This document shows positions 14,997-58,782 of a stretch of 64,000 bases of DNA, one piece after another. The stretch comes from an uncultured candidate division Zixibacteria bacterium. GTDB taxonomy: Bacteria > Zixibacteria > MSB-5A5 > GN15 > FEB-12. Within the stretch, counting starts at the first letter, position 1. Each line of letters opens with the position of its first letter. The notes under the pieces were generated by a model. That model ran no database searches. It worked only from the letters and a program-made list of their open reading frames with translations, and was not told the DNA's origin. The stretch is from the NCBI GenBank assembly GCA_963806185.1, contig CAWDXE010000001.1:960001-1024000 (forward strand), given 5' to 3'. The translations under genes were made by a program, and so were the position numbers.

Positions 14997-15362
14997 AAAA
15001 TCTCGAAGAGTATCGAAAAGGCAGGGCCTTTTCGTTTGTCAAAGAACACGTGGGTCAATATACGCTATCGGCTGAATGCGCACAAACTCCCCACACCCGT
15101 ATAACGAAATACTCGACTCAAAGTTCCAATTTCGAGACGTCAGCCAATCCTATCCGCACCCTCTATCCCTCCTCCCATCAAGCGATTACGCGTCATGTCT
15201 CAGGCGCCGCAACGGAAAAACTTGCCCTTGTGATATCTGCCCTATGCCTTATACTTGTTAAGCTGCGCCGGCACCCGCTTCTACGGGCGTGGGTCCAAGT
15301 ACCTGACGGCAACAACGAACCACTCGCCTGTTCGAACGGCGGACAGCCATTTGGAGGATTCA

Positions 15363-48668: not shown

Positions 48669-49094
48669 ATGACCACCCTGACCACTAAAATTGCCTGGGC
48701 CGGCGGACTCGCCTTTGAAGGCACCTCCACCTTCGGCCACAAGATTCGCACCGACGTCAAACGCGAGGCCGGCGGCGAGGAATCCGGCCACCGCCCCACC
48801 GAGTTGCTGCTCTATGCCATCGCCTCCTGCACCGGCGTCGACATCGTCAATATCCTGCGCAAACAACGTCAGGACTTGACCGGCCTTGAAATCGAAGTCA
48901 TCGGCACCCAGCGCGATGAATACCCCAAGGCGTTTGTCCATATCGAAATCAAGTACACCGCGCATGGAAACAACCTCGATCCGGCCAAAGTCGCCCAGGC
49001 GATCGAACTTTCGGAGAGCAAGTACTGCTCAGTAAGCGAAACCGTCCGGCGGGAGACCCACATCGAAACGAAGTTTGACATCCTCCCGGCCTGA
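48669..49094 (+). CDS. OsmC/YhfA family protein
   Basis: RPTELLL..ASCTG and KYCSVS motifs. Confidence 0.9.
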   Translation: MTTLTTKIAWAGGLAFEGTSTFGHKIRTDVKREAGGEESGHRPTELLLYAIASCTGVDIVNILRKQRQDLTGLEIEVIGTQRDEYPKAFVHIEIKYTAHGNNLDPAKVAQAIELSESKYCSVSETVRRETHIETKFDILPA

Positions 49095-49138: not shown

Positions 49139-49528
49139 ATGAAAGATCAGTTGAAATACGAAATCACCAGCGACAAACCGTTTGACACCGTTGTGGCCAA
49201 TATCGAACGCCTCGTTCCCGAAAAACAATTCCGCGTCCTGCATATTCACGACGTCAAAGCGACGCTCGAAGAAAAGGGATTCTACCGCGATTCGCTGAAA
49301 ATCATCGAGGTCTGCAACGCCGGCTTCGCCAGTCAGGCTCTCCAAAAGGATGTCGACGTCGCCCTCTTCATGCCCTGCAAGTTCTCCGTCTACGTGGTGA
49401 ACGGGAAGACGCATGTTTCCCTGGCGCGGCCGTCGATGATATCGCAAATGTTGCCCCAATCCGGCTTGAATGAACTGGCCGAATCGGTGGAAAAGACACT
49501 CAAAGAGGTCATGCACGCGGCTGTCTGA
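49139..49528 (+). CDS. DUF302 domain protein
   Basis: [14 protein letters not shown] and LFMPCK motifs. Confidence 0.85.
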
Positions 49529-49739
49529 CCCTTCGCCGATTCTTCTGCTGCCCCCATTTGCCCGTTTCACATTGACTTCTGTAAGTTTTTCATTACCTTA
49601 CAGTTGTCTCGCCTCGCGACGCTGCCCTGGCCGCGCCCACGATCCTCATCGCGACGACACAACGATTGCTCGACAACAGTCAAGATCACCGGTCTTGCCT
49701 ATTAGGTACCCATCTTTTTGTCCGCCTGAGGAGGGTGAC

Positions 49740-52700
49740 ATGCACGCGTCACGGTTATCGAAATATCTCCGCACCACCTGTTTCGCCACCGCCATGGCAT
49801 TGCTATTCAGTCTATCTTCAATCGCCGAATCCATGCATGCAAACCCGTTTACCGAAGTGAAAGCACTCGCAAGCGGCGATGGCGTTCAGACTACGGTTTC
49901 GCCCGATCTCTATACTGATCTCCGACAGGGCCCGGACAGTCGTACCATCACTCTTCCGGTAAGTGGTGACCAGACGTTGGCTCTGGAATTGGTGAAGTTT
50001 TCAGTATTGGCGCCCGACGCCCGCATTCTGGTCGCTACTCCGTCCGGTCAGGAACCCCTGGCGGCCGGCGAAGCCATCACTATGCAGGGCTCAATTGCCT
50101 CTGACCCGTCGTCACATGCCTACCTCTCGATTGCCCCCTCCGGCCTGATCAACGGCTTTGTGCAGTCGGCTGACGGTTTGTTTCTCTTCTCCACCCCCAT
50201 CGAGAACCAGAAAGTAGCCGACTATCTCGTTGTCCAGCATCCTTCCGCCTTTGGCGGTGATCGGTACGACAACTTCTGCGGCACAGAGATTAACCCCGAC
50301 CGCATCCGCCAGGAACACGGCATCGCCGCAGCCAACGACAAGAAGGGCAATCTGATGCTCAACGTGGCGATCGATTGCGACCAGAGTCTTACACAAATGT
50401 ACCCTTCAGTTAGTCTGGCGCGCGACTATGTCGTGCAAGTGATCGGGGCCGTAAGCAGTATCTATCAGCGCGATCTGAAAATTCGCCTCGCGCTCCGCTT
50501 TGCCCGCTTCTGGCCGTCAGGCGGCGAGCCGTTTGACGTCAATGATCTGAGCGGTTTCCGCAGCTGGTGGGTAGGCCATGAGGATACCACCGGACTTGAC
50601 CTGACCGAAATGTGGAGCGCCCGCTTTCCGGGCTCGTATGCCGGTATTGCCTACCTCTCCAATACCTGCGAGCATTATGGGTACGGCATTCAGGCGACGA
50701 TGAATGGCACCTTCAACGTGCCGACCGTGTCCCCCCACTGGCGCGTCTGGGACGTCAATATCGTCGCCCACGAAATGGGCCACAACCTCGGCGCCTACCA
50801 CACTCACGACTACGACCCGCCGATCGACCAGTGCGGCAGTATGGGCATTCCCAGCATCGGCACGATCATGAGCTACTGCCACATTGTCGACGGCTCTATG
50901 CTCAATCTCGACCTGCGCATGCACCGTCTCATCAGTACCTGGATTCGCAGCGATATCGATTGGGCCGGCTGTCAGGAGTATGACTGCAACGGCAATTCGA
51001 TTGATGACGCCCGGGATATCGCGCTCGGCACCAGCCTTGACGTCAATCACGACGGCATCCCCGACGAATGCCAGGACTGTAATAACAACGGCATCCTCGA
51101 CCCGATCGACATTTCGAATGGCGCTCCGGATGTCGACGGCAACGGGGTACTCGATGCGTGTGAGCCCGACTGCAACGGCAATAATTACCCGGATCGCGCG
51201 GAAACCGTCAATGGCATTTCACCGGATTTTGACGGTAATTTCCTTCCGGATGCCTGCGATGCCGACTGCAATAACAACGCGGTCATCGATTTTGCCGAAA
51301 TCAATGATGATCCCCTGCTGGACCAAAATCGCAACCGTATTCTCGACGCGTGTGAAGACTGTAACAGCAATACCGTCAACGATTACTACGATATGAATCT
51401 GCAGCGACTGATGATTGTCGGCGACTCGACCAATCAGGCGTCAATGATCATTCGCACCCTCAACGGGTATAGCGGCGCTACGCACTCGAACATCCTCTCA
51501 AACAGCGGCGGTATCTGGGACCTGGTCGTCAATCCCGTCGATAGGCTGGCGTATATCGCCAATTATGATGCCGGGCGCGTCTATCGGTTCAATCCGGTGA
51601 CAAACACGGTCACATCCATACTCTCGAACGGCTACATTTCGGCCAGTGGCATAGCGTTCCACGATATCGGCGGCACGCAATACCTGTTCCTTGTACAGCG
51701 CCTGCTGAATCGAGTGCTTCGCTTCACCACCGCAGGAGCGTTGGTGGGTACTTTCGTCGCGTCGGGGAGCAGTCCGATGACTTCACCACGTGGCCTCACC
51801 TTCGGCCCTGACGGCAATCTGTACGTAGGGTGTGATGGTACCAACGCCATTTATAAGTTCGACGGTACCACGGGCGCCTATCTGGGCGTCTTCATCTCCG
51901 CGGGATCGGGTGGCCTCAATGATCCTTCCGGCATGATGTTCGACCCGGTCGGTGGCAACTTCTGGGTTGCCTCTACCGGTTCCAATCAGGTACTCGAATA
52001 CAATGGTACATCGGGCGCATATATCGGTCCGTTCACGACCGACGGCCCATTTCTGGGTGTCCCGTGGGGCATTCGCAAAGGCCCGGACGGCCTGATTTAT
52101 ATCGGACGACAAAGCCCCGACTCCCGCATCTTCGCCTTTAATCCGACTACGCGCGAATACCTCTATGCCTTCGTGCGAAATCTTGCCGATGCCTCATTCA
52201 AACCGACCGGCTTCGACTTCCTGCCCGACTCGCCCAATGATCTGAATCACAACTGGATATTGGATGCTTGTGAGTCCGGTGACTTTGACGGTGACGGTAT
52301 CGCCAACCTCACTGATAATTGCCCCGGGGCAGGAAACGCCGGACAGGTCGACTCCGACGGTGACGGCGTCGGAGATGCCTGCGACAACTGTCTGGCTGTT
52401 GCCAACCCGGATCAGCGTGACGCTGACAGTGACGGCCTGGGCGATGCGTGCGATCCCTGTCCCTCGAGCCCACTGCAAACCGATGCCGACAGCGACGGCG
52501 TTCTCGACGGCTGTGACAACTGCCCGTTGGTCAGCAATCCCGGTCAGGAAGACGTCGATGGCGACTTGATTGGCGATGCCTGCGACATCTGCGTCAACTC
52601 GCGAGACAATTCCGACACTGACGGCGACGGCGTATGTCAGTCTGAAGACAATTGCCCGGCAATAGCTAACGCCGACCAGACCGATTCGGACCATGACGGC

Positions 52701-53045
52701 ATCGGCGATGCCTGTGATTTTGACGGCGACGCCGACGGAATTAATGACAACGTCGACAACTGCCCGTTCGTCTATAACCCGGGTCAGGAGGACACTGATA
52801 ACGACGGCATCGGCGACGTTTGTTGCTGCGTGGCCGCGACCGGCAACATCGATTGTAGTGCCGGCGATGGTGTCGATATTGGTGACCTGACCGTGCTCAT
52901 CGATAACCTCTTCATTACGTTTGCACCGCTGTGCTGTCCCGGTGAAGGGAATGTTGACGCCACGGGGGGGACCGATATTAGCGATCTGACCGTCCTGATC
53001 GACAACCTGTTTATCACCTTTGGCACGCTGCCGAATTGCCAGTAG
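49740..53045 (+). CDS. Secreted M12B/reprolysin-like zinc metalloprotease with Ca-binding Cys repeats, beta-propeller, TSP type 3 repeats and dockerin-like C-terminus
   Basis: [11 protein letters not shown] and Met-turn TIMSY; DCNxN repeats; GPDG propeller; DxDxDGxGDACD repeats; GGAGG RBS before ATG 49740. Confidence 0.88.
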
Positions 53046-53068
53046 GCTGCAGGTGCCAAGACTAATGT

Positions 53069-53108
53069 AGCGGCCGTTGGAAATGCACTGTTTCCAGCGG
53101 TCGCTTTT
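53069..53108 (+). terminator. Long hairpin between convergent genes
   Basis: AGCGGCCGTTGGAAA / TTTCCAGCGGTCGCT (with G:U pairs) followed by TTT. Confidence 0.65.
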
Positions 53109-53139
53109 GCTAGTCGACCTCTGGTCACTTGGCGGACAG

Positions 53140-54537
53140 TCACTCTATGTTCATGTCCACAACTCGCGATTTGTCGAAGTCGACACATACTCCAAAGGGA
53201 ACCTTGCACTCCCAGGGCAGATTCTCACACGAGCCGTCATCTGAAGAAGCGTCGAGGAATACACAGCGACCCTCAACTTCGGTCATGACAAGCATATGAT
53301 TGAATAGTCCGGAAAGTTGAAACGGCAATTTGTCTCTGGTACTTATCAGAACCGGCCATGCTTTCACGCCGGCGCTTTCCAACATCTTTACCATTAGAAG
53401 ATTGATTTCGAACGGTACGCCGTGCCGGGTTTTGTATAGTTTCCGAAGATCGTCATGTGCCGGATGCATATTGTACCCACCACTATCTGCTGTATACTGA
53501 CTTGTGAGATAGTCACAAATCTTGACAATACGTACCATAGGCGCATCGTCAGATGACCATAGCTTGCCAAACTGCTTTCTCATGCCGATGGTAACTTTCA
53601 GATACTCATTCAGATATCCTTGAATACTCCGGCCCACGTATTGCCAGTGGGTGGAATCGTACACCCCGCGAATAATCCTGTTTTCCCCTCGATCGACGGA
53701 TGAGAATCTGTTGAAATGCAGGCCGCTGCGATTCAGTTCCGAGAAACCCTGGGCACTGCTGTCCGACGGAAATGCTCTGATATTCTCCATGTGCCAGGTG
53801 TGCTTCTTGTAGGCGGTAGCTGTCAACACCTTGACTCGTTCGACCGCCGGATCGGCTCTTTCGGCCGGCATATTTAGGGGGACAAACAGGTAATCGCAAT
53901 CTGCGCCAATCTTGGCCGTAAACTCGGAAGTGAGGCAGTATATAGGATTATCAAAATGCCAGGATGGCAGGTTCCGCATGACAATTCCTTCACCAAAATG
54001 ATCAATATCTCCCTCAATCCTCGTCTTGAACTTGTACGCGTCGTAGTAGTGCTCCTGTCCAAACAGGTAGAACGCCTCGGGCCCAAGTTTGTCAAAACCT
54101 GAGTAGTATTCGATCGTATATCGATACTCTATGATATCACCGGGCTGCAAATCAGAAAACTGCAACACACAGTATCGCCAAGGTCCCTTTTCTACTGTCT
54201 GAGAATGGTCTTTGGCAGAGAGCTTAGAGGTGATGCCCTGCCTGTGAAGCCTCATCTCAATGTCAGTCAGATGGTCATAGTGAAGATATTCAATAGTCGC
54301 CTCACCGGCTTGCACCGCGCCCGCCGGCGTGAATACTTTTAAACGGGTATGCCGGTCGAAAGTCACACCGCTCTGTTCGGTTGTGACGAGACCGCGATCA
54401 AAAAGAATTACAGCATCCGGATAGTCCGCGGTCGGTTGAAGACGCTCCTCATTCTCACTGAACTGCTCCCAGTCTTGCGCATACACGGATACGGCAAAGA
54501 GAAGCGAAAAGATAGCGAAACACCTGAGTAGATTCAT
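53140..54537 (-). CDS. Secreted DUF3857/transglutaminase-like domain protein
   Basis: Signal peptide; DAVILFD, LQPGDIIEYRY and FNHML...FLDAS motifs; GGGAGG RBS. Confidence 0.75.
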   Translation of the reverse strand: MNLLRCFAIFSLLFAVSVYAQDWEQFSENEERLQPTADYPDAVILFDRGLVTTEQSGVTFDRHTRLKVFTPAGAVQAGEATIEYLHYDHLTDIEMRLHRQGITSKLSAKDHSQTVEKGPWRYCVLQFSDLQPGDIIEYRYTIEYYSGFDKLGPEAFYLFGQEHYYDAYKFKTRIEGDIDHFGEGIVMRNLPSWHFDNPIYCLTSEFTAKIGADCDYLFVPLNMPAERADPAVERVKVLTATAYKKHTWHMENIRAFPSDSSAQGFSELNRSGLHFNRFSSVDRGENRIIRGVYDSTHWQYVGRSIQGYLNEYLKVTIGMRKQFGKLWSSDDAPMVRIVKICDYLTSQYTADSGGYNMHPAHDDLRKLYKTRHGVPFEINLLMVKMLESAGVKAWPVLISTRDKLPFQLSGLFNHMLVMTEVEGRCVFLDASSDDGSCENLPWECKVPFGVCVDFDKSRVVDMNIE

Positions 54538-54764: not shown

Positions 54765-54913
54765 AGGCGAAATTAAGATCCTAATAATGGTGTGTCAAGT
54801 CGAGAATTGCTCGCAGCCGAATTTGTGAGGCCGAAATCGGTGGGAACAAAGGTCATCTTTCGCGGAGACGAAATTCAGAGGAACTGCCCGCCTGCGGGTG
54901 TTGTTTCCCCTGC

Positions 54914-55117
54914 ATGCGTTTAGTTCGGTCAATCTTTGACAATCGATTCACCCGCTTGGGGCTGTTTGTTCTGGCCGGCGGCCTGCTGGGTGTTGCCATC
55001 TCGGTCGCTTATTCGTATTTTGGTTCCACCTGACAGATCATGTGTAATCCATACCTGGCCGGGTCGCTGGGTGCCGGAGTCGGACTTATGCTGTCGCTGG
55101 ATAAGGCGAAAAACTAG
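54914..55117 (+). CDS. Candidate selenoprotein: 67-aa two-TM membrane protein with UxxxC motif (UGA at 55031-55033)
   Basis: MRLVRSIFDNRFTRLGLFVLAGGLLGVAISVAYSYFGST-U-QIMCNPYLAGSLGAGVGLMLSLDKAKN; readthrough ends 1 nt before the next ATG; SECIS-like hairpin at 55053-55072. Confidence 0.7.
55053..55072 (+). promoter_or_regulatory. Candidate SECIS element 1
   Basis: ACCUGGC-CGGGUC-GCUGGGU; 7-bp stem, loop starting 26 nt after UGA. Confidence 0.6.
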
Positions 55118-55118
55118 A

Positions 55119-55334
55119 ATGCCGATTTTTGAGTATCAATGCCGCGATTGCGGCCGCAAATTCGAAGAGCTGGTGGGCGCAGCCGACGAAGCGATGAGCT
55201 GTCCCTCGTGCCAGTCGCAAAATGTCTTGAAACTGCTGTCGGTCTTCGCCGCCTCCGTGCCGTCCGGTGGCAGTGCTCCGGCGACTGCTTGCGGACGCCC
55301 CGGCTGTGGCGCCGGATTCAGTTGAGCCAATTGA
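55119..55334 (+). CDS. FmdB-family zinc-ribbon protein, candidate C-terminal selenocysteine (...CGRPGCGAGFS-U-AN)
   Basis: MPIFEYQCRDC...CPSC motif; UGA at 55323-55325 followed by a GGUC hairpin; ends at 55325 if UGA is a stop. Confidence 0.85.
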
Positions 55335-55339
55335 AGTGC

Positions 55340-55357
55340 GGCTCGCGGTCGCGGGCC
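55340..55357 (+). promoter_or_regulatory. Candidate SECIS element 2
   Basis: GGCUCGC-GGUC-GCGGGCC; 7-bp stem, loop starting 21 nt after UGA. Confidence 0.62.
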
Positions 55358-55368
55358 ATCGGAGAACT

Positions 55369-55902
55369 ATGAAGAACCTCGGTCTTAGCGTTGTCGTCAC
55401 CGTCCTGTTGATTGCAGGTTGCGGCCCGGCAAAACATCTCGATGACAAACTCGACTGGCAGAAGATCGGTACTGTTGCGGCCAATTTCCCCGCTGCCCCG
55501 CAACCCGGCTCCAAACCGATCTTTCTCTACTTCAGCCAGAATAACTGCCACTACTGTGCCGCGATGGACAGCCTTTTTGAACGGTCGGAGGTCGCCTGGT
55601 ATATCAACGAGCACTTCCTGCCGGTAAATGTAAACGTGGATACCGATCTCCCCCTGTATGTGGGCCGTGACACCCTCGACTACGCGCGTCTCTTCAAGAT
55701 CTTCAAAATGGACGGATTCCCGGCCTATTACTTTTTCGACACTACCGGTCACCTCATGGGGATGCTGGAACGCTCCATGGACCTGGTGCACCTCAAACGG
55801 AGTCTTGTTTACGTCAACGATGGTCACTTCGGCAAGCTGTCCTGGGAGGATTTTTTGAAGTTACCCGACGTACCAAAGGACACCGTTCGGGGAATCTTCT
55901 AG
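55369..55902 (+). CDS. Thioredoxin-fold lipoprotein (CHYC; SoxW/DUF255-like)
   Basis: Lipobox IAGC; KPIFLYFSQNNCHYCAAM and cis-Pro GFP motifs; GGAG RBS. Confidence 0.85.
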   Translation: MKNLGLSVVVTVLLIAGCGPAKHLDDKLDWQKIGTVAANFPAAPQPGSKPIFLYFSQNNCHYCAAMDSLFERSEVAWYINEHFLPVNVNVDTDLPLYVGRDTLDYARLFKIFKMDGFPAYYFFDTTGHLMGMLERSMDLVHLKRSLVYVNDGHFGKLSWEDFLKLPDVPKDTVRGIF

Positions 55903-56666
55903 CCGCGCTTTTGTGCCACCACGCAGATTCGTCCGGCATCCGCCGGCGCCTTTCCAAAGGTCCTGCAGTCGTAGACGCCGCGAATGACGAATCCGGCCCG
56001 GCGCACGAGCCGTTGTATCTCTGCTGGAGTATACCCGCGCTCGCAATGGGTTTCATCAAAGCGCTTCCAGTACTTCCCTTGCCGCACAAAAAACGCCGCG
56101 CGCAGTATGCCCAGCTTCCGCTTCGCGTCAAACTCCGCTCGCCACGCCCAGGCCAGATCATCAGTCGCCCCCGTCGAATTCTGCCACCTTCCAAGCCCGG
56201 CCAGCGTGTTCATGTCGAATATCAGCCACCCGCCGGGTACGGTGCGTGTATGCGCAGCGCGAAACGTTGCCAACAACTCCCGCTCTGTCAGGAGGTAGTT
56301 CAGGGCGTCGTAATAGCTGGTGACCAGGTCAAACCCCGTACCGATCGCTCTATCCGGTAGCTCCAGCTTAGGCAGGGTCGATCGGTAGAACCGTGCGTCG
56401 AAGCGGTGGCATTTCTCTCGGGCCACCTTCAGCATGGCCGCCGATTGATCAACTCCGACAACGCTATACCCATGCTCGGCAAACAGCTTTGCCGCCGTTC
56501 CGGTGCCGCAACACAGGTCGAGCACTCGACGAGGTCGAATCTTGTGGCGCCGCATAAGTTCCAGTGAATAGGCCACCATCTTCGTAGAAAATCGGTCCAT
56601 ACCGATCTGGTCATACACATCGGCGAACCGGCCGTAGACGCCGCGCGACCCGGTTTTAGTTGACAC
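55899..56666 (-). CDS. Class I SAM-dependent methyltransferase
   Basis: VLDLCCGTG and DALNY motifs; GGAGG RBS before GTG 56666. Confidence 0.9.
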   Translation of the reverse strand: MSTKTGSRGVYGRFADVYDQIGMDRFSTKMVAYSLELMRRHKIRPRRVLDLCCGTGTAAKLFAEHGYSVVGVDQSAAMLKVAREKCHRFDARFYRSTLPKLELPDRAIGTGFDLVTSYYDALNYLLTERELLATFRAAHTRTVPGGWLIFDMNTLAGLGRWQNSTGATDDLAWAWRAEFDAKRKLGILRAAFFVRQGKYWKRFDETHCERGYTPAEIQRLVRRAGFVIRGVYDCRTFGKAPADAGRICVVAQKRG

Positions 56667-56775
56667 TTTTTTTCCTCCAAATTTCTTACCAGCACGTATA
56701 CTCGGTTGCGACGGAAGCGGCAAGCAGAACTTTCACGTCTGGGCCGCAGCTCCGACGCAGAGAAAGGAACCCCTG

Positions 56776-57204
56776 ATGACGACGATGTTCTGGATATGGA
56801 TGGCGGCGGCGCTCATCTTTCTGATTATCGAGTTGACCACACCGACCCTGATCTTTCTGTCCTTCGTGGTCGCAGCAGCAGCAGCCGGTATTTATTCATA
56901 CTTTGAGCCGACGGAATACTATTGGCAACTGGGTATCTTCGCCGCACTGTCGCTAATACTGATTCCCACTACCCGCCGGTTTGCCAAGCGGATTACGAAG
57001 GAAGCCCCCGAGCATGCCAATGTCGATCGCATGTTGGGCGGCATTGCCATCGTCACCAAGGATATCGACCCCGATGTGGGCGGCCAGGTGAAGTACGAGG
57101 GCGAATTGTGGGTGGCCAAAGCCGACGAGCCGATCGCGGCCAACAACAAAGTCAAAATCATCTCGGTGGCCGGCACACGCGTGCACGTCCAGAAAGTGAG
57201 CTAA
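56776..57204 (+). CDS. NfeD family membrane protein
   Basis: Hydrophobic N-terminus and GQVKYEGELWVA OB-fold; adjacent to the SPFH gene. Confidence 0.9.
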   Translation: MTTMFWIWMAAALIFLIIELTTPTLIFLSFVVAAAAAGIYSYFEPTEYYWQLGIFAALSLILIPTTRRFAKRITKEAPEHANVDRMLGGIAIVTKDIDPDVGGQVKYEGELWVAKADEPIAANNKVKIISVAGTRVHVQKVS

Positions 57205-57207
57205 GTC

Positions 57208-58188
57208 GTGGAATCGTCACTGCATCCGGTTGTCATTTTTCTCCTCGTCCTGGTTGTCTTTGCATTCATTTATGTGCTTGCGGCGATACGTACCATCCGC
57301 CCCTTTGAAAAAGGACTGATTGAACGTCTCGGTCGCTTTCAGCGCGTCATCAATCCCGGCCTGAATTTGATTGTGCCGTTTTTCGACACCCTGATCAAAG
57401 TCGATATGCGCGAGGTAGTCATCGAAGTCCCGGCCCAGCTGGTGATCACCAAAGACAACGTCAATGTCGAGGTTGACGCTGTCATCTACTGTCAGGTGAC
57501 TGACCCCTTCCGCTCCCGCTACGAAATCACCAATTACATCATGGCGGCCACCAAACTGGCGCAAACCAACCTCCGTAACGTGATCGGCGAGCTCGACCTG
57601 GACCAGTGCCTGTCGTCACGCGAGCGGATCAACTCCCAATTGCGCGATGTCATGGATCAGGCGACCGACAAGTGGGGCGTAAAGGTCAATCGTATTGAAC
57701 TCCAGCGCATCGATCCGCCGGCCGACATCACGCAGGCGATGAGCCGCCAAATGAAGGCCGAACGTGACAAGCGCGCCACCATTCTCGACGCGGAAGCGAT
57801 CCGGCAGTCGGAAATCACGAAGGCGGAAGGCTCCAAGCTGTCACAGATTCTCGAAGCCGAAGGGTACTCACAATCGATACGGCTGAAAGCGGATGCGGAG
57901 AAGTATCGTCAAATCGCCGTGGCCGAGGGTGAAGCTCAGGCCACTATCAACGTCTTCAAGGCGATTCACGAGGGCCAGCCCGACGAACGACTGATCACAC
58001 TCAAATATCTGGAGATGCTGCCCAAACTGGCTGAGAACGAAGCCAACAAGATCTTCATGCCGTACGAAGCGACGGGAATCATTGCGAGCCTTGCGGCCAT
58101 GGTTGACGGTGTGCGTCTGAACAACGCCCCGAAGGCGAAAACTCCGGTGGCGGTCACCGCCACGCCCCCACCGATGAAGCAGGGGTAG
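57208..58188 (+). CDS. SPFH/Band 7 (stomatin/QmcA-like) protein
   Basis: ERLGRF, ITKDNV and QMKAERDKRA motifs. Confidence 0.94.
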   Translation: MESSLHPVVIFLLVLVVFAFIYVLAAIRTIRPFEKGLIERLGRFQRVINPGLNLIVPFFDTLIKVDMREVVIEVPAQLVITKDNVNVEVDAVIYCQVTDPFRSRYEITNYIMAATKLAQTNLRNVIGELDLDQCLSSRERINSQLRDVMDQATDKWGVKVNRIELQRIDPPADITQAMSRQMKAERDKRATILDAEAIRQSEITKAEGSKLSQILEAEGYSQSIRLKADAEKYRQIAVAEGEAQATINVFKAIHEGQPDERLITLKYLEMLPKLAENEANKIFMPYEATGIIASLAAMVDGVRLNNAPKAKTPVAVTATPPPMKQG

Positions 58189-58281: not shown

Positions 58282-58782
58282 ATGTCGATTCTTCGACGTT
58301 ACCCCAGTTTCGGAAAACCGGTTTTCGTGACGATGGTGACATGTAACCGAGCACCCGTTCTTGAACCAATGAGGTCGATGATTCTCGGCAAATTGCGTCG
58401 ACTGGACAGAGAAGGCGCTTGGCAACTCACCGCATGGGTCATATTGCCCGATCACCTTCACTTGCTAGTGCTCCCCAAGACGGCAGAGATATCACCCTTG
58501 ATTCATCGAGCAAAAATGGCGATTAGCTCAGGGTTACGCGCGCGGATAGGACACTCATTTGGGCGACTGTGGCAACATCGCTTCTTCGATCACATCATTC
58601 GAAATCAAGAAGATATGAATCGACACATAGATTACATTCACTACAACCCGGTAAGACATCACCTTGCGATCTCTCCGGGCGAGTATGAATATTCTTCCTT
58701 CAAGCTGTATCTCACTGACGAGAAGTATGAAGCTGATTGGGGCAGCGTGGAGGGGATGGATGGAAGGGACTTTGGCGAGTAG
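58282..58782 (+). mobile_element. rayT: REP-associated tyrosine transposase (RAYT, Y1 HUH)
   Basis: FVTMVT, WVILPDHLH (HUH), WQHRFFDHIIR and YIHYNPV motifs; flanked by inverted REPs. Confidence 0.92.

Follow-up and report, generated by a model that had tools for sequence, protein, structure and literature searches.

The DNA window analyzed here, a stretch of 64,000 nucleotides from an uncultured candidate division Zixibacteria bacterium, contains three tightly packed genes, two of which very likely encode uncatalogued selenoprotein forms of known families, as judged from comparative sequence analysis; both forms are absent from the 2026 inventory of 119 prokaryotic families. ORF1 (54914..55117, + strand) specifies a 67-residue, two-helix membrane protein related to DUF6132, with U40-x3-C44 in its loop. 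After a one-base gap, ORF2 (55119..55334, +) specifies an FmdB-family zinc ribbon with a Cys-Gly tail ending in GFS-U-Ala-Asn, and ORF3 (55369..55902, +) an exported thioredoxin-fold lipoprotein, which appears to be an accessory member of the operon. An initial annotation of this DNA had described the three packed genes at coordinates that all match the sequence, and had read both in-frame TGA codons as selenocysteine (Sec). The latter assignment is supported by the Sec machinery of the genome, by alignment columns in which TGA and Cys alternate, and by a covarying hairpin downstream of the ORF2 TGA. The genome under study possesses tRNA-Sec as well as selA, selB and selD above cut-off, the selD gene itself having one TGA, and selA was found in 262 of the 285 genomes of the phylum. 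Comparisons were made across 63 loci from 62 genomes in eight families of the phylum, namely 30 from a class-wide search, 13 new ones from a phylum-wide profile search after 17 duplicates were dropped, and 20 picked by hand. The hand-picked loci were chosen to cover Cys forms and distant families, so that the sample is not a random one, and kin within it are not independent. The ORF1 homologue of one of these loci, L032, is identical to a database protein assigned by its source to Candidatus Zixiibacteriota.

The TGA of ORF2 is almost certainly recoded as selenocysteine, so that a selenium-containing product is predicted. ORF2 scores 55.7 bits against PF09723 (cut-off 34.4) and 56.4 bits against TIGR02605 (cut-off 31.3), and its two CxxC knuckles are all Cys, as is expected of an FmdB protein. 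The predicted Sec69 corresponds to the TGA at 55323..55325 (+), two codons ahead of the true stop, giving the end GFS-TGA-Ala-Asn-TGA with the second TGA at 55332-55334. This tail is conserved in relatives: all 63 loci show a ribbon TGA with a second stop one to four codons on, mostly after G-F-S/T or a near variant. In the genome under study TGA ends 1022 of 2150 long genes, and a similar short tail occurs in just 16 of these 1022. A second Sec at 55332 was rejected, the second stop being TAA, TAG or TGA among relatives. The SECIS element of ORF2 (55340..55357, +) lies in non-coding DNA and comprises a 7-bp stem with a GGUC loop at +24. In 61/63 loci the ribbon TGA is followed by a hairpin with 4 bp or more, the loop of which lies between +18 and +29 and reads GGUC in 40. 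Covariation was assessed in 22 of the first 30 loci, eight with five-base or deviant loops being excluded, using an alignment centered by hand on the loop. Here, 85.7% of the cells were paired, with 55 two-sided changes and a covariation of 0.875, a value reached by 0 of 500 shuffles, while slid alignments gave at most 0.20. No Cys homologue exactly at the Sec position was found among the 63 loci. The 100% complete genome G058, in which selA gave no match and selB none above cut-off, encodes a ribbon with a Cys-rich tail and no GGUC-type hairpin, the tail not being alignable one to one with the Sec tail. Outside this set, a pattern scan of metagenomes returned at least 121 stretches, of which 34 were ribbon C-termini; a stem of 4 bp or more was present in 27 of these 34 versus 8 of the 87 other stretches, and all 34 ribbon tails stop within one to five codons. 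A variant ribbon tail, U-G-T-x-G/A-C (U-x4-C), was seen in L120, L121, L124, L127, L128, L173, L183, L188, L200 and L206, and some ribbons with this tail adjoin genes for ParA/4Fe-4S ATPases, DUF5320 or radical SAM proteins.

Recoding of the ORF1 TGA (codon 40 of 67; 55031..55033, +) is likewise highly probable, with Sec40 predicted four residues ahead of Cys44 and selenium again expected in the product. Across the 63 loci, the Sec column holds TGA in 38, Cys in 23 and Arg in 1, with one broken gene; the in-frame TGA thus aligns with the Cys of homologues, and conserved sequence continues beyond it. The Arg variant is L068, and in L081 the loop is deleted and an in-frame stop is present; both loci retain the ribbon TGA and SECIS despite the altered ORF1. 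Matches to ORF1 were found in 31/151 genomes across the class, with the in-frame TGA in 23, and a profile built from 24 sequences matched 157 of the 285 genomes of the phylum; among the 150 matches listed, a hand count gave TGA in 114, no stop in 35 and TAA alone in 1. C36 is unchanged in all 118 database homologues, three database relatives have Trp at the Sec column, and the second Cys near Sec is absent from L087 and some other relatives. As a single-sequence query ORF1 retrieved no homologue, and a contig scan with Cys-coded patterns hit a single unrelated Dorea locus. The starts of longer ORFs, at 54936 and 55267, do not appear in the alignments of relatives and were rejected.

A candidate SECIS hairpin of ORF1 (55053..55072, +) is weak in the genome under study (z of -0.77 and +0.48, not significant alone), and the argument for it is an excess of structure at the level of the family. 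Compared with synonymous recodings, the Sec forms have mean z values of -1.58 and -1.73 after the TGA in two windows (n = 23), the Cys forms 0.07 and 0.62 in the same windows (n = 7, from two families only), and in an upstream control window the Sec and Cys forms are equal in structure. Relatives do not preserve the GGUC loop at this position and share no single conserved loop. In a weakly supported FastTree phylogeny of 62 loci (121 columns, the broken L081 excluded), six changes between Sec and non-Sec states are needed versus a mean of 19 after shuffling, and, apart from one f11 locus, the Sec form is mostly confined to two families that are related to each other. Were both TGA codons plain stops, ORF1 would be broken and ORF2 would end at GFS, an explanation that we regard as scarcely credible. 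In its favor are the weakness of the ORF1 hairpin in this genome and the fact that all five database relatives of ORF2 terminate at GFS; however, these ends are those of gene callers, which stop at TGA. Moreover, the second helix of ORF1 is conserved past the TGA, its Sec column alternates between TGA and Cys rather than TAA or TAG, and the ribbon keeps both the TGA (63/63) and the hairpin (61/63).

DUF6132 (PF19628) comprises Cys-type small two-helix membrane proteins of unknown function. The PF19628 model gave no match to ORF1 at an E-value of 0.1, which is short of its gathering cut-off, and it matched only 4 of 24 aligned ORF1 relatives at E-values up to 1, the best being 3e-5; as the model missed it, ORF1 is classed as DUF6132-related and not as a member. 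In the reverse direction, the ORF1 profile retrieves PF19628 proteins, including those from other taxa, which argues for homology at the profile level. Both have two Gly-rich helices, and S/N-P follows the Sec column, at which DUF6132 has an invariant loop Cys. They differ in that ORF1 has Sec at the invariant Cys of DUF6132 and lacks the first Cys of the DUF6132 C-x2-G-x-C motif, having its own Cys four residues on. In three families of the phylum, canonical DUF6132 with C-x2-G-x-C fills the place of ORF1 before the ribbon. DUF6132 was found in 3 of 201 sampled genomes of another phylum, with TGA in none. With respect to topology, which the initial annotation had proposed predicting in order to place the UxxxC loop, the mean Lys+Arg count falls from 4.1 ahead of helix 1 to 0.2 within the loop and is 1.25 past helix 2; by the positive-inside rule the loop is therefore predicted to face outside, and the predicted cytoplasmic side of ORF1 has no cysteine. 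An AlphaFold2 model gives a helical hairpin with a pLDDT of 67-68. Foldseek returned nothing at an E-value of 0.001, fold searches yielded only generic hairpins (best Z 6.2), and a PDB sequence search produced no entry below an E-value of 0.2.

Further candidate selenoproteins were observed in the same genome and elsewhere. A GGUC hairpin also follows the TGA in two more genes of the genome under study (G000). A candidate exported thioredoxin-like selenoprotein, which has U-x2-C and a long, helical C-terminal region, lies at G000:C3:277892 (-), and a candidate glutaredoxin-like selenoprotein ending in GGG-U-GI, with a GGUC hairpin at +24, at G000:C4:166744 (+). In L141 and L156, a one-helix ORF ending in LP[KR]LGVPT-TGA, with the frame open beyond, precedes the Sec ribbon in an operon that is led by ArsR and also contains DUF302, and is a candidate membrane selenoprotein at the place of ORF1.

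The operon is probably preceded by a genuine ECF-type promoter (SigH/SigE type; 54880..54905, +), predicted from its -35 GGAAC (54880-54884) and -10 GTT (54903-54905), which are separated by an 18-nt spacer and end 8 nt before the ATG at 54914. No purine-rich Shine-Dalgarno sequence occurs within 20 nt ahead of this ATG, and an mRNA starting from the predicted promoter would be leaderless or nearly so. The initial annotation had noted the same motif, its distance from the ATG and the missing Shine-Dalgarno sequence, all of which match the DNA, and its proposal of ECF control gains from the distribution of the motif. Of the 21 loci without an upstream DUF302 gene, 12, spanning four families, have GGAAC-N17/18-GTT no more than 250 nt from ORF1, as compared with 18 of 2150 genes in the genome-wide background; the motif-less loci among the 21 are seven of f9/f15 and two of f1. 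It was found within the same distance in 2 of the 41 loci with an upstream DUF302 gene, and the strict motif is present ahead of 4 of 36 osmC-led operons, so ECF control may hold in some lineages only. In G000, with placement scored on a crude gene map, the intergenic share is 26/83 for the N17 and 19/55 for the N18 spacing, versus 10-17% for five other spacings. Approximately 45 intergenic sites make up a candidate thiol-stress regulon of G000, and a further intergenic GGAAC-N17-GTT site lies at 15103 (-) of the window (G000:C1:975103).

As in a SigH/SigR-type regulon, the motif is conserved before the first gene, and of 14 sigma-factor genes only the SigH-like one carries it. This ECF sigma gene (G000:C5:128325-129790; L034) has its own GGAAC-N18-GTT and is followed 3' by a zf-HC2 gene, the product of which is predicted to have a membrane helix and an outside domain and is a candidate membrane-anchored anti-sigma factor. 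The sigma factor scores 189 bits against TIGR02947 (actinobacterial SigH), below the cut-off of 251.55, the next sigma factor reaching 82 bits. Other genes behind the motif encode what we take to be a WCGPC thioredoxin, two superoxide dismutases, cysteine synthase, YceI and HesB/IscA proteins. A comparable regulon, with a GGAAC-N17/18-GTT promoter, a zinc anti-sigma factor and a thioredoxin target, is that of SigR/RsrA in Streptomyces. SigH/SigE promoters of Corynebacterium are given as GGAAC-N17-18-cGTT (PMC10012870), and the Corynebacterium system shares with the present one the promoter motif, apparent autoregulation, a zinc anti-sigma gene downstream and a thioredoxin target. The present case differs from SigH/SigR regulons in the phylum, in a sigma factor that falls under the TIGR02947 cut-off and in an anti-sigma factor with a predicted membrane helix.

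The initial annotation had recommended examining the co-conservation of the genes, and for the first two it is complete in the set, ORF1 lying directly 5' of the ribbon in 63/63 loci. The third gene is far less constant. An exported thioredoxin follows the pair in 19 of the 63 loci, in five of the eight families (f1 5/36, f4 6/6, f5 1/1, f9 2/2, f15 5/5; none in f7 0/3, f11 0/6 or f18 0/4), and is absent from the remaining 44; when only the 58 loci whose downstream DNA extends 700 nt or more are counted, it is absent from 40. By alignment, 3 of the 19 lack CxxC. ORF3 itself is above the cut-off for Thioredoxin_2 (PF13098), with CHYC at 55546-55557 and a lipoprotein-type signal read off the sequence, and RNA data from one run contain a single 176-nt contig, which lies within ORF3. 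Its likely ribosome-binding site, GGAG (55361..55364, +), begins 3 nt past the SECIS stem. The suggestion that this hairpin couples selenium supply to ORF3 translation was rejected, since GGAG is outside the stem; moreover, the SECIS is kept in loci without the thioredoxin gene. The distance from SECIS end to ORF3 start is 8-22 nt in 14/19 loci, as expected for a compact operon.

Upstream of ORF1, DUF302 occurs in 41/63 loci and OsmC in 39/63. The OsmC-family gene (48669..49094, +; PF02566), the first operon gene in most relatives, is detached here, and the DUF302 gene (49139..49528, +; PF03625), directly 5' of ORF1 in most relatives, is 5.4 kb off. Two genes at 49700-54537 part this otherwise adjacent group from ORF1, namely a minus-strand DUF3857/transglutaminase-like gene and a gene for a long secreted protein, in which we presume a peptidase-like motif. 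On the other side, a convergent methyltransferase gene and an NfeD-SPFH pair (55899-58188) keep their synteny with the operon in a number of relatives, and an IS200-like transposase gene lies at 58282-58782. The genome G017 possesses osmC, DUF302, the Sec ribbon and the thioredoxin, with ORF1 absent. No ORF1 was seen upstream of the 34 metagenome ribbons in the DNA examined, which was short for many; their neighbors include DUF6132 downstream of one, and DUF302, OsmC, thioredoxin, ArsR-/CsoR-family genes and ParA/4Fe-4S ATPases for others.

Our preferred reading, which we hold tentatively and at slightly under even chances, is that the three genes form a thiol-stress operon whose Sec/Cys products may buffer redox state in parallel, at either face of the inner membrane; parallel action is favored over serial action because each gene occurs without the others. 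The SigH-like ECF sigma factor, freed from its zinc anti-sigma factor, would drive transcription of the operon, along with that of trxA and of superoxide dismutase genes. On the outer face, ORF1 would expose U-x3-C (canonical DUF6132 has C-x2-G-x-C), cycling between selenol/thiol and selenenylsulfide, and would be re-reduced by a thioredoxin, the neighboring lipoprotein, fed by DsbD/CcdA proteins. The zinc ribbon of ORF2 would be a scaffold for a flexible tail bearing the terminal Sec, which together with the tail Cys may reduce oxidized thiols or scavenge oxidants in the cytoplasm. The constant adjacency of ORF1 and ORF2 could point to a tighter link than parallel action. A link to thioredoxins is supported by the exported thioredoxin gene that follows the pair in five of the eight families, and by two database proteins that have a C-x3-C hairpin fused to a C-terminal thioredoxin domain; because this domain is predicted to be cytoplasmic, opposite the loop, either the topology or the step involving an outer-face partner may be wrong, and these fusions are at odds with the predicted sidedness of ORF1.

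In the view of the initial annotation, the three products may form an electron relay across the envelope. CcdA/DsbD and SoxV-SoxW are transmembrane electron relays, and as in those systems a cytoplasmic thiol protein, a membrane protein and an exported thioredoxin are here encoded together. The ribbon Sec tail would then pass electrons to ORF1, probably as an oligomer, and ORF1 to the exported thioredoxin, as CcdA/SoxV does to SoxW. One redox-motif protein per compartment, a gene order conserved in 19 loci of five families, the invariable ORF1-ORF2 adjacency and the ORF1-thioredoxin fusions are all consistent with it. As an obligate arrangement of three parts it is not supported: most loci lack the thioredoxin, CxxC is lost in three of those that have one, Sec-tailed ribbons are found with no ORF1 upstream in the metagenome DNA examined, and G017 has the ribbon and the thioredoxin but not ORF1. 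A serial relay is weakened in general by such independent loss of members, by the lack of a Cys on the predicted cytoplasmic side of ORF1 and by the three DsbD/CcdA-type membrane domains above cut-off elsewhere in the genome, and we consider it quite improbable. ORF1 also differs from CcdA/DsbD in having two helices with the redox pair in a surface loop, and PF02683 does not match it. In a bolder version, which is slightly more doubtful still, ORF1 oligomers would be a selenium-based, 67-residue substitute for CcdA/DsbD, receiving electrons or sulfane sulfur from the ribbon Sec tail on the cytoplasmic side and delivering them through their U-x3-C loops to the exported thioredoxin.

Two other readings assign the pair to chemistries other than the redox buffering that we prefer. 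ORF1 and ORF2 might be carriers or acceptors of persulfide or perselenide on the two membrane faces, handling sulfane sulfur or selenium and acting with OsmC and DUF302 to detoxify or traffic reactive sulfur. This is unlikely, though several neighborhoods point that way: on a Pontibacter plasmid a DUF6132 match lies amid three rhodanese genes, trxB and genes for TauE, an MBL hydrolase and YeeE/YedE; a rhodanese gene flanks a weak DUF6132 match in L092; and Sec-tailed ribbons elsewhere occur with DUF302, OsmC, thioredoxin and regulators of the ArsR and CsoR families, both of which include persulfide sensors. These are, however, a few loci, and no rhodanese, YeeE or TauE was found among the 80 neighbor proteins scanned in part of the phylum loci. 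Alternatively, the ORF1 loop might capture soft metals (Cu(I), Hg, Ag) outside, as small Mer membrane proteins do, with the ORF2 tail chelating them inside. On four Riemerella plasmids, one region of which was inspected, DUF6132 is directly 3' of a gene for a heavy-metal-associated domain, a MerR-family gene lies 3' of the ORF1-ORF2 pair in L085, a CsoR-family gene lies 5' of the Sec ribbon in L133, and the Sec-less G058 substitutes a Cys-rich ribbon tail. Against metal binding or shuttling, no metal ATPase or efflux gene was present among the same 80 neighbor proteins, and among the genes listed behind the promoter motif are those for thioredoxin and superoxide dismutases and not metal pumps; we judge it to have a rather low probability.

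Neither Sec form could be traced in the sources consulted. Two FmdB selenoproteins predicted from GOS reads have Sec in the first zinc knuckle (PMC2398784), and a different FmdB is described elsewhere (PMC11227280). ORF2 belongs to the same zinc-ribbon family as the GOS proteins and Sec is predicted in both; the GOS sequences, however, have a C-terminus of another type, whereas the ribbons described here have Sec 2-5 residues from the C-terminus, all-Cys knuckles and a SECIS in non-coding DNA. Table 1 of PMC13188914 enters TIGR02605 FmdB solely as UxxU, and lists no Sec form of DUF6132 and no two-helix U-x3-C family. Its UXX-star entry (NF041211, GxGU motif) resembles ORF2 in having a C-terminal Sec followed by a few residues, but is a glutaredoxin fold whereas ORF2 is a zinc ribbon; the glutaredoxin-like GGG-U-GI gene of the genome is UXX-star by motif only, and its GGUC hairpin is at +24 as in ORF2. 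NCBIfam 20.0 contains no selenoprotein model matching ORF1 or ORF2, literature word searches showed no paper on either Sec form among the titles listed, and the families of Haft and Tolstoy 2025, as listed in a review, include neither.

Both types are cut or missed by gene callers. DUF6132 and the FmdB ribbon, families of unknown function, are tied by this locus to thioredoxins and a thiol-stress promoter, so that their function becomes open to testing. Should the membrane protein prove to be a substitute for CcdA/DsbD, no smaller transmembrane redox conduit would be known; it would be present in more than half of the genomes of the phylum and belong to a SigH-like regulon found outside the Actinobacteria. 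Finally, the SigH-like regulon and the GGUC-loop SECIS signature in this uncultured phylum are usable for finding more hidden selenoproteins.
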